Assembly (NCBI GenBank): GCA_003574845.1
Contig: NDHY01000005.1
Span: 3,342 to 67,341, forward strand
Reading direction: 5' to 3'
Origin: a candidate division NPL-UPA2 bacterium Unc8
GTDB lineage: Bacteria > NPL-UPA2
DNA: 64,000 nt
The first letter of the stretch is position 1. Every line of letters starts with the position of its first letter. Positions 53,510-63,895 of this stretch are shown here, piece by piece. A program made the position numbers and the translations under genes. Below the pieces are notes generated by a model. It had not been told where the DNA came from. It saw only the letters and a program-made list of their open reading frames with translations, and searched no databases.

Positions 53510-55582
53510 TTAGGGTCCTCCTGTTTTTCCCAGAATCTCCTCCTTTGTCTTCTCGGCAACCTCTCGGTAGTGCTCAAACTCCATAACAAAGTTTCCCCGG
53601 CCCTGAGTCATTGATCTTAAAACCATCGCATAGCCAAACATTTCCGAAAGAGGAACAAGTGCACTAATAATCCTTATCTCTCTGTTACCTCCCGTCTCCT
53701 CTATCTTCCCTCGCCGCGATGCAAGGTTACTTAAAACTTCCCCTGCATATTCATTAGGAACATTAACTTCAACAGCCATGATCGGCTCCATGAGAATGGA
53801 TCTTCCTTTCCTTGCTACTTCCTGAAAAGCCATTGATGCTGCCATTTCAAATGCCAAATCAGAGGAATCTACCTCATGATAAGAACCATCAATCACAGCA
53901 ACTTTAATATCAACAACAGGATATCCTGATAGAACACCATTCATCATTGCCCGACGTATCCCTCTTTCAATTGATGAGATAAATTCTCTGGGAATTGATT
54001 CTCCTTTAAGTTTGTTGACAAATTCAAATCCGCTACCTCTGGGCAATGGTTCAATTTCTATCCGTACATGACCATACTGCCCCCTCCCTCCTGTCTGACG
54101 AACAAACTTCCCTTCTCCTGCTGCCGATCTGGTTAATGTCTCTCTATAGGCTACGTGAGGAACGCCTACTTTTGTTTCAACTTTAAATTCACGGCGCAGT
54201 CTTTCTACTAAAACTTCCAGGTGAAATTCTCCCATTCCAGCAATAACTATCTGTCCCGTTTCCTTATCTACCTTTACCTTGAAAGTAGGATCTTCTTCTG
54301 AAAGCCGGCGCAGGGAGAGGCCTAACTTATCTTGATCGGCCTTAGTTTTTGACTCAACTGTAATCCAGGCTATCGGCTCAGGAAAGTGAATTGACTCCAT
54401 AATTAATGGGTAACCTACAGCAGACAGGGTATCTCCTGTTATCGTATTCTTGAGACCAACAATAGCAACAATATCTCCGGCAAGAATCTCTTCTTTTTCT
54501 TTACGTTCGTTGGCATGCATTTCTAAGACTCTTTCCACTCTTTCTTTATGCTGCAACCTGCTATTGTAGACGCTCTCACGACGAGAGAGCTTCCCTGAGT
54601 AGGCACGGATATACACCAGTCTTCCCACATAAGGATCAGAAACAATTTTAAACGCTAGCGCCGAGAAAGGAGAGCCATTGTCTGCGGCCCGCACCTCTGC
54701 GGCTCCAGTTACCGGTTCTCGCCCCTTAACTGGTGGAACATCTAAAGGAGAGGGAAGATAATCAACAATGGCATCGAGCAAAGGCTGGAGTCCCTTCATC
54801 TTCAGCGCGGCTCCACAGAGAACAGGGATAAATGACTCTTCAAGTACAATTTTGCGTAAGGAAAGTAGAAGCTCTTCAGGAGATATTTCTATCTCCTCCA
54901 GGTATTTATGCATTATCTCATCGTCGCTATGAGCTGCCCGCTCAATTAATTTGTTATGATATTCTTTAGCATCAGAAAGAAGCTCTTCTCTAATATCCTT
55001 GACTGCGCAGTCCAAATCATTTTCTTTGTAGATGATTTCCTTCATCCGCACTATATCAACTGCACCGCAAAAACCATCCTCCTTGCCAATGGGGAGCTGC
55101 ACTGGAAGCGCATCAGCACCAAGTTTTTCACTTATTTCAGCAACAACTGTCAAGAAATCTGCTCCAACCCGATCCATCTTATTAATAAAAGCAATTCTTG
55201 GAATATGATATTTATTTGCCTGGCGCCAGACAGCTTCTGACTGCGGCTCTACTCCTCCAACACCGCAAAAAACGGCCACAGAGCCGTCAAGAATTCGGAG
55301 TGACCGCTCAACCTCAGCGGTGAAATCAATATGCCCGGGGGTATCAATGATATTAATACAATGATTCTTCCAAGAACACGTTGTTGCCGCAGCAGTAATG
55401 GTTACTCCTCTCTCTTTTTCCTGCTCCATCCAGTCCATTGTTGCGGTCCCTTCATCAACCATACCAAAACGATGCACTTTCCCGGTACAATAGAGAAGCC
55501 CCTCAGTGGTGGTGGTTTTCCCAGCATCAACGTGAGCCATAATGCCAATATTCCTTACCATTGATATAGGATATTTCCGCAC
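53510..55582 (-). CDS. fusA: elongation factor G
   Basis: [27 protein letters not shown]; GTG 55582 (SD GGGAG after rpsG stop) gives 690 aa. Confidence 0.96.
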
Positions 55583-55604
55583 CGCTTGCTTACTCCCACT
55601 GTTT

Positions 55605-56075
55605 TTACCATCTGTAATGAGCAAAGGCCCTATTTGCCTCAGCCATACGATGGGTATTCTCCTTTTTCTTAACCGCGGCCCCCTCTCCTTTAGCCGCATC
55701 CATAAGCTCCCGTGCCAGCTTCTCTGTTGTCGGAAGTCCTTTTTGACTCCGTGCTGCATCAATGATCCAGCGAATAGCAAGTCTATTTCTCCTATCCGGC
55801 CCAACCTCTACGGGAATCTGATAGGTAGCACCTCCCACCCGACGTGATCTTACCTCCAGGACCGGCTTTGTCCGATCAATCGCCTCGGTGAAAACACCCA
55901 AAGGAGGCTGCTTGGTTTTTTTCTCAATCAAATCAAGAGATGAATAAAAAATAGTTTCAGCAACGCTCTTTTTCCCTTTTCGCATTAAACAGTTAATGAA
56001 CTTGGCAACAAGGTAATTATTATACCTTGAGTCAGGTGGCACCGATCGCTCTTTTACCTCTCTCCTTCTTGGCAT
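55605..56075 (-). CDS. rpsG: 30S ribosomal protein S7
   Basis: [29 protein letters not shown]. Confidence 0.97.
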
Positions 56076-56160: not shown

Positions 56161-56535
56161 TTAACCTTTTGGTCTTTTTGCTCCATAGTGTGAGCGACTC
56201 TTTCTTCTTCCTTCCACCCCAGCAGTATCAAGTACCCCTCTTACCACATGATATCTTATCCCAGGAAGGTCTTTCACGCTTCCTCCACGGACAAGGACAA
56301 TGGAATATTCCTGAAGATTGTGCCCAATACCCGGGATATAAGCGGTTATCACCATTCCATTAGAGAGTCTCACACGAGCTACCTTACGTAAGGCTGAATT
56401 GGGCTTCCTAGGGTTCATCGTGCTCACCTTAAGGCAGACCCCCCTCTTCTGGGGAGAACAGCGAAGGGCAGCTCTCTTTGTGCTCTTTCTTCCCTTTTTT
56501 CTTCCTTTTCTAATTAATTGATTTAACGTCGGCAT
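56161..56535 (-). CDS. rpsL: 30S ribosomal protein S12
   Basis: [21 protein letters not shown]. Confidence 0.97.
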
Positions 56536-59500
56536 CTATTGCTATATGGTAATGATGACTCATCCCCGTACCAGCAGGGATGAGACGTCCTAAAACCACA
56601 TTCTCTTTTAAGCTTTTTAGTTCATCCTTTCTTCCATTAAAAGCAGCATCGGTAAGAACACGAGTTGTCTCCTGAAAAGAGGCAGCAGCAATAAAGCTAT
56701 CTGTAGATAGAGAAGCCCTTGTAATTCCTAATATCACCGGGGCCGCCCTGGCAGGTCTCTTTCCTTCGGTTTTAAGCTTTTCATTTTCTTCCTCAAATTT
56801 CCACCTATCAATCTGATCTCCAATTAAAAATGCAGTGTCTCCTTTATTTTCAATCTCAATCCGACGTAACATCTGCCGGATGATTAACTCAATATGTTTA
56901 TCATTAATTGTTACACCTTGCAACCAATAAATTTCCTGAATCTGATCAATGAGGTGCCTTTGAAGATTCTTTATGCCCCTTACTCTCAATATATCCTGGA
57001 GCACAACTGGTCCATCAGTCAGTGGCTGACCTGCGCTGACCATCTCCCCCTTATAAATGGTCATATGTTTCCCCGGAGGAACAAGATACTCCCTTTTCAT
57101 CCCTGTTTCCTCATTCTTTACAATAATTTTTCTTTTCTCTCCAACCGACTCAGTAAATTCCACTATTCCGTCTATCTCAGTAATAACTGCTGGGTTCTTT
57201 GGTCGGCGAGCTTCAAATAATTCTACTATTCGCGGAAGGCCACCGGTAATATCAACAGTTCCAGCAACTTCCCGTGGTGTCTTAGATAGTAAATCTCCAG
57301 GAGAAACCCTGTCTCTTTCCCGAACAACTATACATGCCCGAGGTGGAAGTCCATAGTAACCAAGAATTTGTTTACTGGCATCTCTGATTACAATTTGCGG
57401 ATGAAGGTCTGCTTTGTGTTCAGTAATTACCTTTGTCGTTAGCCCGGTTGCTCGGTCAAACTCCTCCTGGACCGTCACCCCAAGTACAATGTCTTCAAAT
57501 TCAACATTTCCCTCAATCTCACTCAAGATAGGCCGCATATACGGGTCCCAGCTCGCAAGTAAATCTCCTTTGGCAACACTCACTCCACTCTCACAAGCGA
57601 TTACTGCCCCTGGAAGAACTATGTGTCGCTCAAGTTCCCCTCCTTCCTTATTGCAGATGAGAATAGCGCCATTGCGATTAAGCACAATGGTTTGCTGTTC
57701 CTTGTTTTTAATCGTTTTTAATCTATAATAGTGGACAACACCATCATCACGAGCAAAAGCCGCTGACTGTTCTATAACTCGTTGAGCTGCCCCTCCGACA
57801 TGGAATGTCCTCATTGTCAGCTGTGTTCCTGGCTCACCAATACTCTGAGCAGCGATTACCCCTACTGCTTCCCCGAGCTCAACGAGGTGGCCAGTAGATA
57901 GATTGCGGCCATAACATCGCCGGCAGATCCCCTGTCTTGTTTCACAAGTTAAAGGAGAGCGCACTTTGACTCTTTCAATCCCTGCTTCCTCAATCACATC
58001 TGCCAGTTCCTCTGTTATTTCATCTCTGTTCTTAACTATAATATTGCCTAATTGCGGAATAATGATATCATCGCATGCTATTCTTCCCACCACTCTTTTT
58101 CCCAGAGAAACGAGCTCCTCCATACCACCATAGATTGCTTCTACTTCAATGCCATTTGGCGTCCCACAATCCTCCTCAGTAATTATCAAATCCTGAGCAA
58201 CATCCACTAACCTTCGTGTCAGGTAGCCGGAGTCAGCTGTTTTTAACGCTGTATCAGCTAAGCCCTTTCTTCCTCCATGGGTAGAGAGAAAATATTCAAG
58301 GGCTGTTAACCCCTCACGGAAATTAGCAGTAATTGGAGTCTCAATAATTTCTCCAGATGACTTGGCCATTAACCCACGCATCCCCCCTAATTGTCTGATC
58401 TGTAGCCGTGAACCACGCGCTCCACTATCAGCCATCATAAAGATTGAATTAAATTGACCATCCTTACTACTTTTCTCCATCTGCTCAAAAACAAGGTTAG
58501 AAATTTTATCAGTGCAGCGGGTCCACAGGTCAATAATTCTATTGTGCCTTTCCCCGTTGGTAATCAGCCCACGATGATATTGTTCCTTAATTTCATTAAC
58601 TTTACCCTTTGCTTCCTTTAAAATACTATTCTTCGCCGGTGGAATTACACTATCATCAATAGCAATAGAAATCCCTGCAGTTGTAACAACCTCAAAACCA
58701 ATATCCTTGATACTGTCTAAGAGCTGCACTGCCTCTTCAGCGCCACACTGGCGATGAACAATGCCAATAAGATGAGAGAGGTCAGACTTCTTCAATTCCT
58801 GATTAACGAAGGGAATTAGGGGAGGAAGCAGAGTATTAAAGATGACTCTGCCAACCGTGGTTGTCACTAACTTTCTCCCTCTGCATATCTTTATCATGGC
58901 CTGGATATCAACATAGCCATTCCTCCAGGCAATCTCAACCTCGCCAGGGTCAGAGAATATTTTGCCCTCTCCCTTTGCTCCAGCTCTCTCTTTTGTCAGA
59001 TAGTAGCAGCCAAGAACAATATCCTGGGTAGGAACCGCAATCGGCTCACCACTCGCTGGCGAAAGGACATTGCGGGAGGAGAGCATAAGAAGATAAGCCT
59101 CCATCTGCGCCTCAGTAGAAAGCGGAATGTGAACAGCCATTTGGTCTCCATCAAAATCTGCATTAAAGGCAGTACAAACCAAAGGATGAATGTGAATGGC
59201 ATTCCCTTCTACCAGGGTAGGCTGAAATGCCTGAATACCAAGACGATGCAATGTTGGCGCTCTATTCAGAAGGACCATGTGGTCTTTAACAACCTCCTCT
59301 AAAATCTTCCATATCTCATGCCCTATTTTTTCGAAGGTGCGCTTAGCACCTCTAATAGTGTGTGCTAATCCACGTTCTCTTAGCTTTTCAAGAATAAATG
59401 GCTCAAATAATTCCAGTGCCATCCTCCTTGGAAGCCCGCATTGAGAGAATTTAAGCTTTGGGTTGACAACAACAACCGAGCGCCCTGAGTAGTCCGCACG

Positions 59501-62500
59501 TTTGCCAAGGAGATTCTGCCGAAATCTTCCCCCCTTTCCTTTAAGCACATCACTTAACGACTTTAGCGGCCTATTTCCTGCCCTTACTATAGGTTTTCCG
59601 CGACATCCATTGTCAAAGAGAGCATCAACCGCCTCCTGTAGCATCCGCTTCTCATTGCGAATGATAATCCCCGGAGTAACTGGGTCCTGCAGCAATTTCC
59701 TGAGCCGACTATTCCTGTTTAGTATACGGCGATATAGGTCATTCAGGTCTGATGTGGCAAATCTTCCTCCATCGTCAAGTGGAATAAGTGGGCGCAGATC
59801 AGGAGGAAGAACAGGAATTACATCCATAACCATCCACCCTAACTTATTATCTGATTGGCGAAAGCCCTCTACTATCCTTAATCTCTTCATAATTCGTAGT
59901 TGTGCCGACGAAGAAGTAGCTTTCTCAAGACCGGCGCGGAGAGTTGCCACCAGTTCATCAAGAGAGACCATCTCTAACAGCTCCCTAATCGCCTCGGCTC
60001 CTATCTCTGCTTTAAAGCAGGAACCAAACTGCTTTTGGTACAGCCAACGTTCCTCTTCCATTAGCAAGGTTCCTTTTTTTAACCCACTATCTCCTGGGTC
60101 AATTACTACGTATTTTTCATAATAAATTACCTTTTCAAGGTCGCGCATACTCATTTCCAGTATTGCTCCGATACGAGAAGGAACAATCCTAAAGAACCAG
60201 ATGTGAACAACGGGACATGCTAACTTTATATGTCCCATTCGCTCCCTTCTCACCTCCGAGCGAGTAACCTCAACCCCACAATAATCACAGATAATTCCCT
60301 TATGCTTAATCCTTTTGTACTTACCGCAATGACATTCCCAATCGTGGGCAGGGCCAAAAATCTTTTCACAGAAGAGCCCATCCTTTTCAGGCTTAAATGT
60401 TCTATAGTTTATAGTTTCAGGTTTCTTTACTTCACCACGTGACCAGGAAAAAATTGCCTCTGGGGAGGCAATGCCAATTGAGATATTGCCAGTATCACGT
60501 CTTGACAAAAACACTTTTTCTCCTACTTTTTCTTCATATCTTATGTCAAGACAGAGGCTTTGTAGTTCGCGAGTGAGAACATTAAATGATTCCGGGGTGC
60601 TTGGTGGAAAAGCGTTTTCTCCCTTAACAATTGACTCGTACATTCTTGCGCGACCGGCTACATCGTCGCTCTTTACAGTAAGAAGTTCCTGTAAGATATG
60701 GGCGGCTCCATATCCCTCAAGCGCCCATACCTCCATTTCGCCAAATCGTTGCCCTCCAAGCTGAGCTTTACCGCCAAGTGGCTGCTGGGTAATAAGAGAG
60801 TAGGGCCCAGTTGCCCTGGCATGAACCTTCTCGTCAACCAGATGATTCAATTTCATTATGTAGATGTACCCAACCGTTATCTTATTGGTAAATGGCTCAC
60901 CGGTGTAGCCGTCATAGAGAGTAGTTGTGCCATTCTCCGGGAGGCCAGCACTGCAGAGTAAGTCTTTAATGTCCTTCTCCTTGGCTCCATCAAAGACAGG
61001 GCTTGAAACATATATTCCCATGGCATGAGCAGCCCAGCCAAGATGAGCCTCTAATATCTGCCCAAGAGTCATTCGGGAAGGAACTCCCAGTGGGTTAATG
61101 ACAATCTCTACAGGTGTCCCATCAGGCAGATATGGCATATCCTCCTCGGGAAGTATGCAGGAGACTACTCCCTTATTTCCGTGTCTTCCAGAAAGCTTAT
61201 CGCCAACCTGCAACTTCTGCTTTACTGCAATATAGACCTTAGCTACCTTATTGACCCCAGAAGAAAGAGTGGTAGTGTTAAGCGCTCCACTCTGGCGTGA
61301 GAAAACCCGGACATTAATAACCGTTCCGCCGCCGCCAGGGGGAACCTTCAAGGAAGCGTCACGCACATCACCCGCTTTTTCCCCAAAGATTGCCCTCAGA
61401 AGTCTATCCTCAGGCAACAGCTCTGTCTCACCTCTCGGAGCTACCTTACCTACAAGGATATCTCCTGGATTCACCTCTGCTCCAATGCGCACAATCCCAT
61501 TCTCATCAAGGTTTCCAAGAGTATCTTCACTAACATTCGGGATGTCTCTTGTTATCTCTTCCGGCCCAAGCCTTGTATCACGCTCCTCAACTTCAAACTC
61601 CTCAATATGGATTGAAGTATAGATGTCATCTTTAACAATCTTCTCGCTGATCAGAATAGCATCCTCAAAGTTATAGCCACGCCAAGGCATAAATGCTACC
61701 AGGACATTCTTTCCTAATGCCAGCTCCCCGCCAGATGTCGCCGGACCATCAGCAATTATCTCTCCAGCCTTCACCAAATCACCAGGATAGGTAAGTGGCT
61801 TCTGGTTAAGAGAAATATTCTGATTTGAACGGTAAAATTTCTGCAGCGGGTATTTTCTTGTGCCAGATCTTCCCCGAATAATAATTTCATCAGCAATGAC
61901 CCGCTCTACTCTTCCAGCAGTCCGGGCAATGACTGTCGCACCAGCATCACGGGCAACGGTGGACTCCAGCCCCGTTCCCACCAATGGCGCCTCTGTCCTC
62001 AAGAGTGAAACTGCTTGTCTTTGCATATTTGACCCCATCAATGCCCGATTGGCATCATCATGCTCAAGAAATGGAATAAGGCCAGCAGAGACGCTCACCA
62101 GTTGCAAGGGAGAGACATCCATGTACTCTATCTCATGCGCGGGCTTCATAATAAAGTCATCCCGGAAGCGAGCAAAAACCTCTTCATCCTTAAGCCGACC
62201 TTGTTCATCAAGCTCTGTATTTATCTGTGCAATAAAATAGTTATCCTCAACATCAGCGGAAAGCCATGCAATCTCATTGGTAACCTTCCTGTCCTTCACC
62301 TTGCGGTAAGGAGTTTCCAGGAACCCATACTTATTGGTTCGCGCATAAGTAGAAAGCGAGACAATAAGCCCGATGTTCAGTCCTTCAGGAGTCTCCACAG
62401 GACAGATTCTCCCATAATGCGAGAAATGAATATCCCTTGCTTCAAAGCCTGCTCTCTCTCTACTCAACCCTCCGGGGCCAAGAGCAGAGATACGACGCTT

Positions 62501-63895
62501 ATGCGTTAATTCAGCCAAAGGATTTATCTGATCCATAAATTGGGAGAGCTGACTGCGTCCAAAGAAGTCTTTGAGGACGGAGGAAACAACTTTGAAATTA
62601 ATCATATTTCTTGGCCAGAGGTCAGTTAATTCCCGACTGTTCATTTTTTCCCTAATATTCCTCTCCATTCTCGCAAGGGCAATGCGGAATTGGGCCTCAA
62701 CAAGCTCTCCAACTAACCTCAGGCGACGATTGCCAAGGTGATCAATGTCATCAACTGAGTTATCCCCGCTCTCTAACTTGAGTAGGTAGCGGAGAATTCC
62801 AGCTAAGTCTTCTTTCCTCAAAGAGGTCATGTTTTCAGAAACGTTTGTCCCTAATCTTTGATTTAACCGATGGCGACCAACACGGCCTAAACTGTAATAG
62901 TTAGAACTAAAAAATAGCCTCTGGAAATATCTACTCGCACTTTCAGTAGTTGTCGGTTCTCCCGGACGGAGTCGCTGATAAATCTCAATGAGAGCCTCCT
63001 CCCGGGTACAGCAATGATCCATTTTTAAGGTATCGATAATTGATTTTCCCTCTTTCGTAAGGATAATTAGCCTGAGGTTGGTTCGTTCTTTGGCAATCTC
63101 AGCTAAAATCTCAGCATTCAACTCAGTTCCAAGAGGTACACTTGCCCCCTCTCTAATGATGACACTTTCAGCGAGAAGGCGACCAATTATCTTCTGATTC
63201 TCCTGAAGAGTAGCGCCCAGTTTCACCATCTCAATATCGTAAAAGAGTTTTATGATTTCCTCATCTGAAGAATAGCCAAAGGCACGCAAGAACGTAGTTG
63301 CTAAAACCCTACGGCCCCTGTCAATCGTTACCCAGAGAAGACCGTGACGATCAAACTCAAACTCTATCCACCCTCCGCGATGAGGAATAATCTTTGCTGA
63401 GTAGAGCCTTTTCCCACTGGAATGCACCTTCTCATCATAAAAGACACCAGGAGAGCGGTGTAGTTGACCAACGACGACGCGTTCAACTCCATTAATGATA
63501 AAGCTACCATTCTCACTCATCAGAGGAATCTCTCCAAGATACACCTCTTGCTTTCTGATATCTTTATCCTCACCGCCTTTATCATGCAGGACCAGCCTCA
63601 TCCTTGCCTTAAGTGGAGCAGCATAGGTCATCCCAATTTGCTGGCAATCTTCAATGGTATACCCTGGTTTTTCAATAGAGTAATTTAAAAACTCAAAGGA
63701 ACATTTTCCATCATCAGAAGTGATTGGGAATATTTCTCTGAAAACAGCCTCCAGCCCCTGCTGCCGCCTCTTATCAGGATGCATCTTTTCCTGAAGAAAT
63801 TCATCATACGAGTGTTTCTGGAGCTCTACAAGGTCAGGAGGGTCCATCACCACAGGAATCCTGGCAAACCCTTTCCTTTCAATCATTTGCCTCAT
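56510..63895 (-). CDS. rpoBC: fused RNA polymerase beta-beta' subunit (1127-aa RpoB part + 1334-aa RpoC part)
   Basis: One ORF containing RpoB motifs ([38 protein letters not shown]) and RpoC motifs ([31 protein letters not shown]). Confidence 0.95.

Follow-up and report, generated by a model that had tools for sequence, protein, structure and literature searches.

A single open reading frame (ORF) encoding a fused β-β′ RNA polymerase subunit, rpoBC, was identified on the minus strand of a 64,000-nucleotide stretch of DNA (contig NDHY01000005.1; "the window" hereafter means this whole stretch). We hold with good confidence that rpoBC is a functional, vertically inherited gene, the outcome of an ancient, clade-wide fusion in which the native C terminus of β is joined directly to the native N terminus of β′. 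The fusion is fixed in the window clade of uncultured bacteria and in a sister clade that includes metagenome-assembled genomes (MAGs) named NPL-UPA2. According to the ORF listing, the gene begins with ATG and encodes 2461 amino acids (aa) plus a stop, and its translation runs from the RpoB N terminus to the RpoC C terminus with zero internal stops, passing through PESFNVL in β and through the zinc-binding Cys motif and the catalytic NADFDGD in β′. Precomputed Pfam matches covered all RpoB domains (Rpb2_1, Rpb2_2, Rpb2_3, Rpb2_45, Rpb2_6, and Rpb2_7) and all RpoC domains (Rpb1_1 to Rpb1_5). Membership in both families was likewise clear: TIGR02013 scored 1686.8 bits (cutoff 801.15) with the whole protein, NF001616 scored 1635.9 bits (cutoff 896; aa 6-1121 against profile positions 2-1095 of 1096), and the RpoC profile TIGR02386 scored 1713.2 bits (cutoff 963.5; aa 1138-2448 against profile positions 2-1145 of 1147). 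ORF listing, uninterrupted translation, and domain matches thus agree with an earlier reading made from the letters alone (the sequence-only reading), which had called a single 2461-aa RpoB-RpoC ORF. The parts of the gene are as follows.

56510..63895, minus strand: rpoBC, fused β-β′ RNA polymerase subunit (ORF, Pfam, NCBIfam)
60527..63895, minus strand: β (RpoB) module, aa 1-1123 (NF001616, TIGR02013, alignment)
56510..60514, minus strand: β′ (RpoC) module, aa 1128-2461 plus stop (TIGR02386, motifs)
60476..60535, minus strand: junction or linker, aa 1121-1140; variable, purine-rich, under relaxed constraint
60527..60531, minus strand: A5 run in GAA GAA AAA, a substitution relative to the GAA GAA GAA of relatives
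60520..60525, minus strand: out-of-frame (+1) TAG (60523-60525) overlapping a Shine-Dalgarno (SD)-like AGGAG (60520-60524); strain-specific substitutions
60512..60514, minus strand: in-frame GTG (Val1128) at the Met1 position of unfused β′; possibly a vestigial or weak internal start

On the minus strand the junction reads TAT GAA GAA AAA GTA GGA GAA AAA GTG TTT. The conserved end of β (LDIRY) and the conserved start of β′ are only 14 residues apart, which bears out the earlier statement that no linker is present; this junction is shorter than any other in the set of 26 fused proteins, whose linkers vary in both sequence and length when aligned. Simple concatenation of the Escherichia coli subunits would place 19 residues over the same interval. 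Val1128 lies 32 residues ahead of ETINYR, the position of Met1 in many unfused, Omnitrophica-labelled β′ proteins and the modal Met1 position of unfused β′, in agreement with the earlier placement of the GTG where β′ begins. Removing one A from the A5 run gives GAA GAA AAG TAG, and direct counting confirmed every coordinate previously assigned here (A5 at 60527-60531, TAG at 60523-60525, the AGGAG, and the GTG at 60514). A terminator-like hairpin (60453-60472, minus strand; an 8-bp stem followed by T5) lies within codons about 40 nt past the GTG. Its stem was broken in five of the five relatives checked, and as a terminator the hairpin was dismissed as chance.

That deletion of one base restores two plausible genes, complete with an SD sequence, is what a homopolymer error in sequencing or assembly would look like, the true sequence being A4 with a separate rpoB (ending at the TAG) and rpoC (starting at the GTG); moreover, some junction-spanning metagenome fragments elsewhere do resemble read-through artifacts, with translated intergenic sequence followed by Met. 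However, the exact rpoBC protein was present on 7 contigs, and the three for which DNA was compared, GCA_018725355.1 (NCBI), SRR8194967 (Logan), and SRR21439978 (Logan), matched the window at every one of 7386 nt (0 differences). Outside rpoBC, in the rpsL-rpsG spacer, a 7-nt indel distinguishes one of the three from the window, so the compared contigs are separate assemblies of one population, from different runs, and not copies. All close relatives are fused in the same frame even though they lack the A5 run, and no unfused β above 55% identity was found among the 120 best-scoring homologs in a collection of 15 billion proteins. A 50-aa junction peptide searched against metagenome contigs returned one irrelevant partial match, with no further close relatives and no A4 allele. 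The sequence-only reading had left room for a homopolymer error; identity across independent assemblies closes it, and we regard such an error as extremely improbable.

A whole-protein search of NCBI, JGI, ENA, and Logan sources returned 25 further full-length fused homologs (2445-2800 aa, from 91% down to 50% identity) and one truncated one. By identity to the window protein, four fall at 81-91% (P0002 to P0005), four at 64-66% (P0006 to P0009), fifteen at 59-63%, and two at about 50%. The junction was read through in frame in all 24 homologs whose junction motifs were located by scan, and the window gene belongs to the general class of β-β′ fusions: one frame, no stop, reproduced across assemblies, and conserved in relatives. 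An NCBI protein named candidate division NPL-UPA2 (MCD5402037.1, P0124) also spans the rpoBC junction in frame; it falls in the 90%-identity cluster of P0007, to which the window RpoBC is 65% identical. A survey of rpoB/rpoC junctions in relatives, suggested earlier as a check, accordingly found them fused in the same frame, the NPL-UPA2-named protein included. NCBI annotates this junction-spanning fragment from an NPL-UPA2 MAG as "hypothetical protein, partial," likely because the curated fused models leave such proteins below cutoff. At about 1120 aa, the β module in the window clade is compact; in P0010 to P0023, which are also fused, β is longer by about 110-180 residues and has precomputed matches to PF01333, PF01551, and PF25984, a pattern suggestive of an insertion specific to that lineage.

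The window SecY is closest to a group at 89-94% identity, then to SecY named NPL-UPA2 at 64%, and beyond these to Omnitrophota, Chlamydiota, and "Ca. Ancaeobacter" at about 55%. Judged by SecY (64%) and RpoBC (65%), the uncultured bacterial host has its nearest named relatives in NPL-UPA2, identity of about 65% being a level that does not settle membership in the same phylum. No 16S rRNA gene lies within the 64-kb window. The candidate phylum NPL-UPA2 is on record from sites of serpentinization (PMC6305446), in a paper that makes no mention of RNA polymerase genes; our literature search found no paper mentioning an rpoBC fusion in NPL-UPA2 or Omnitrophota, nor any match to the assembly or run accessions.

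The junction codons of the window and of its close relatives (L084, L085, L087, and L088) bear on the age of the fusion.

Window: GAA GAA AAA GTA GGA GAA AAA GTG TTT
L085: GAA GAA GAA GCA AGA GAA AAG GCG TTT
L087: GAA GAG GAA GCG AAA GAA AAG ATG TTT
L088: GAC AAA AAA GCA AAG GAA GAA ATA TTT
L084: GAA GAA GAA AAT AGA GGA GAG AAG GGG TTT

L085, L087, and L088 are collinear with the window codon for codon and without an indel, and L084 has one codon more. Because no indel separates the first three from the window, the frame predates the A5 run, which arose by a G-to-A substitution (GAA to AAA); in comparison with close relatives, the TAG came about by a GCA-to-GTA substitution and the GGAG by a change from ARA to GGA. 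A recent, strain-level fusion by +1 insertion into an A4 run, the model of the sequence-only reading, draws its appeal from a junction one base off a two-gene arrangement and from a GTG at the canonical β′ start position, yet the same codon count is found in three relatives without the window's A5 run. Synonymous divergence (dS) between the window and its four close relatives ranged from 0.25 to 0.94. Since dS reaches 0.94 within the fused clade and a sister clade at about 65% identity is also fused, the fusion is old. We therefore consider a recent +1 event very unlikely, and neither part of that model, the recency or the slippage, survives comparison with relatives at 81-91% and a sister clade at 64-66% aa identity that are themselves fused. 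The ratio of nonsynonymous to synonymous divergence (dN/dS) was 0.11-0.18 for β, 0.10-0.19 for β′, and 0.41-0.68 for a 21-codon junction; by this measure, both halves are under strong purifying selection, and the junction of about 15-20 residues drifts as a flexible tether would. A neighbor-joining tree of the RpoB part, which resolves shallow clades only, gave bootstrap values of 100 for P0001 to P0005 (the window clade) and 95 for P0001 to P0009. On these grounds, the age of the fusion is no less than that of the P0001-5 clade and, on the most parsimonious reading, reaches back to the P0001-9 clade.

The ancient fusion that we favor would be expressed as one polypeptide of ~275 kDa (an estimate of the sequence-only reading) and would assemble into a core enzyme of the form α2(β-β′)ω, the tether enforcing 1:1 stoichiometry and co-assembly of β and β′. 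The layout of the junction resembles an ancestral two-gene boundary, with the end of β, about 4 codons, and then the former β′ start position. Since this layout is kept, the fusion probably dates from long ago, when the rpoB stop was lost or bypassed and translation ran on through a very short spacer. Point substitutions in a linker rich in Glu, Lys, and Gly would later have given the window strain its A5 run, its out-of-frame TAG, and its AGGAG.

A dual output can be envisaged for the window strain, in which the fusion is accompanied by free β′ initiated from AGGAG-N5-GTG and/or by free β made through a +1 slip (AAA-G to AAG-TAG). The organism uses GGAG-type ribosome-binding sites, and the junction motif has the SD style and spacing of rpoBC, tuf, rpsJ, and rpsS, bona fide genes of the window. 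A loose configuration (in-frame start, SD-like core, and out-of-frame stop nearby) occurs 14 times in the rpoBC ORF; the strict form, with an out-of-frame stop, AGGAG, 5 nt, and then an in-frame start, occurs once in 2462 codons, exactly at the junction. L087 has an ATG at the position of the GTG codon. However, the codon at the Val1128 position varies from GTG in the window to GGG in L084, GCG in L085, ATG in L087, and ATA in L088, and because the start codon varies in this way among close relatives, internal initiation is not conserved. Across the five close relatives, a start codon is present in 2, GGAG in 2, and TAG in 2 (in different frames), and the linker of NPL-UPA2-like L089 contains no start codon, no GGAG, and no TAG; a conserved SD sequence plus start codon at the β′ boundary, the mark of an internal start, was thus not found among the close relatives and L089. 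Nor were a slippery site and a stimulatory element conserved, as in a programmed frameshift of the prfB or dnaX kind: the A5 run, short for efficient slippage in any case, is missing from L084, L085, and L087, the A6 run of L088 lies one codon upstream and is followed by neither an out-of-frame stop nor an SD-like element, and no stimulatory structure is conserved, the hairpin not being kept. A purine-rich linker coding for Glu, Lys, and Gly yields SD-like strings by itself, and we infer that the boundary elements are by-products of such a linker and not a mechanism. Dual output in the window strain is, in our view, unlikely. The variable GTG/ATG/ATA/GCG/GGG codon is plausibly a former β′ start in decay. 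It is also conceivable, though we think it quite unlikely, that the boundary within this old fusion has secondarily become functional again, so that one gene now gives rise to both fused and separate subunits; if true, the window strain would be a present-day intermediate between fused and split RNA polymerase.

Beyond these clades the distribution of fusions is patchy, as far as sequence comparison can tell, including within or near Omnitrophota. In a sample of 77 diverse genomes, the genes were separate in 75 and fused only in Helicobacter muridarum and one Paceibacterota MAG; this sample was drawn with a 501-aa junction query that was swamped by the universal FGEMEVWA pattern, contained no close relatives, and was biased to same-frame gene pairs. 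A search of 1.84 billion representatives returned at least 20 full-length-sized matches (1.9-2.8 thousand aa) with the junction query in mid-protein, plus many fragments. In the Paceibacterota case (L030; DATJQA010000074.1, Candidatus Paceibacterota MAG), a single uninterrupted rpoB-rpoC ORF of 2284 aa was seen in one assembly; it is possibly a further, independent fusion in the candidate phyla radiation or else an assembly artifact. In many short "fused" metagenome fragments (P0370, P0381, P0393, P0416, and others), translated intergenic sequence rich in Arg and Gly precedes a normal β′ N terminus beginning with Met. These are likely read-through artifacts and counsel caution in fusion censuses. 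A 2580-aa fused rpoBC (P0021; L091/L093, JGI Ga0118719_1000909), in turn, was assembled on 11 contigs and shares its contig with a secY whose product is about 70% identical to Omnitrophota-named SecY proteins. In a β′-only homolog search, which covered partial proteins of at most 1047 aa and served for N-terminus positions and names rather than for ranking fused against unfused forms, 113 of the 120 nearest β′ N termini were unfused, many of them labelled Omnitrophica.

Several points weigh against reading all of this as one old fusion expressed as one chain. Bootstrap support for a single clade of all fused proteins was 0 of 100 in the neighbor-joining tree of the RpoB part, and the sequences support a single origin for the P0001-9 clade only. 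Even there, the linkers of the two subclades are of different lengths and resist alignment, and independent fusions are formally possible. Several separate events nearby, in the window clade, the NPL-UPA2 clade, and some Omnitrophota-like lineages, would fit these observations, as they would the fused but Omnitrophota-like P0021 among mostly unfused neighbors and the scattered further cases (L030 and the at least 20 mid-protein matches). We treat such multiple origins as possible, if tentative, given that P0001-9 is a 95%-supported clade whose members were all found fused, for which one event is more parsimonious. The placement of the host near NPL-UPA2 draws on two named proteins. As for expression, the chance of the boundary configuration falling where it does is roughly 0.6-8%, depending on stringency, so the coincidence, though not trivial, is no compelling argument; AGGAG-N5-GTG looks competent, and some low-level internal initiation in the window strain is possible. 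Expression as a single chain, free of proteolytic processing, is what the sequence would predict.

An engineered E. coli rpoB-rpoC fusion was reportedly described by Severinov et al. in 1997. Among natural cases, PMC1557499 describes rpoB-rpoC fusions in Helicobacter and Wolinella, with credit there to Zakharova et al. 1999, and PMC7483510 gives Helicobacteraceae and Wolbachia as natural rpoBC fusions, the Wolbachia case being credited to Lane & Darst 2010; a functional synthetic E. coli fusion is cited in a preprint (bioRxiv 10.1101/2021.11.05.467461). Like the window gene, the Helicobacter/Wolinella form (NF007172 / PRK09603) has β followed by β′ in one ORF, lies in the operon context rplKAJL-rpoBC-rpsL, is fixed in its clade, and is treated as a rare genomic change. 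It differs in belonging to another phylum, in encoding a protein of about 2890 aa with lineage-specific insertions (against 2461 aa in the window), and in having a longer junction unrelated in sequence to the minimal one seen here. The Wolbachia form (NF011417 / PRK14844) is similarly a natural, lineage-conserved β-β′ fusion, but it is alphaproteobacterial and its profile spans about 2839 aa. Against the Helicobacter-type equivalog NF007172 the window protein scored 2748.6 bits, below the cutoff of 5372 and in five separate matched stretches, and against the Wolbachia-type equivalog NF011417 it scored 2647.6 bits, below the cutoff of 4632. Because it scores below both NCBIfam cutoffs, belongs to another lineage, and has a junction of unrelated sequence, the window protein is, by sequence criteria, a fusion family separate from the Helicobacter and Wolbachia types. 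Independence from Helicobacter/Wolinella and Wolbachia had been proposed from the letters alone and is upheld by the sub-cutoff scores, the other lineage, and the junction unrelated to that of Helicobacter. In the engineered E. coli fusion, tethering the β C terminus to the β′ N terminus is compatible with assembly and activity, and the window protein is expected to work because that tether is functional; the E. coli construct is artificial, whereas the window fusion is natural and its junction is shorter than the concatenated E. coli termini. Compared with unfused rpoB and rpoC (Omnitrophota and other bacteria), domains and gene order are the same and the β′ Met1 aligns with Val1128, but unfused forms keep the stop codon, the spacer, and a separate start. 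A sequence search of the PDB found no fused chain among its best 60 matches, and an AlphaFold2 prediction of aa 897-1496 from a 16-sequence alignment was uninformative (mean predicted local distance difference test score, 44.3).

Features of the neighboring genes are as follows.

56161..56535, minus strand: rpsL (S12), beginning with its canonical residues; its 5′ end shares 26 nt with the 3′ end of rpoBC

This rpsL/rpoBC overlap is also 26 nt in L085 and L087 and is 47 nt in L089; L084 has a 390-nt gap instead. The rpsL gene, of the str operon, may be translationally coupled to rpoBC, and gene callers on the Logan contigs chose a shorter rpsL. Directly upstream of rpoBC, rplL (L7/L12) is unusually long in the window's strain (171 aa; L081 2407-2922), the typical length being about 125 aa; it reaches 201 aa in the Omnitrophota-like contig (L091 1226-1831) and 244 aa, with no Pfam match, in the NPL-UPA2-like contig (L089 3170-3904). 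The fusA ORF at 53510-55804 (minus strand) was listed at 764 aa from an upstream TTG overlapping rpsG, and gene callers run on identical DNA gave a 690-aa elongation factor G with a GTG start; the long form is a start-codon artifact of the mechanical listing.

In textbooks, fusions of β and β′ count as rarities, and Helicobacteraceae and Wolbachia are the only cases quoted. What is new here is a third, independent, clade-wide β-β′ fusion, in an uncultured lineage near NPL-UPA2, with hints of further scattered fusions in an Omnitrophota-like organism and a Paceibacterota MAG. By analogy with the known β-β′ tethers, rpoBC would work as they do and involve no new mechanism. As a rare genomic change, the rpoBC fusion could be a marker by which to classify such MAGs, and it suggests that tethering of these two large subunits is a recurrent and tolerated solution.

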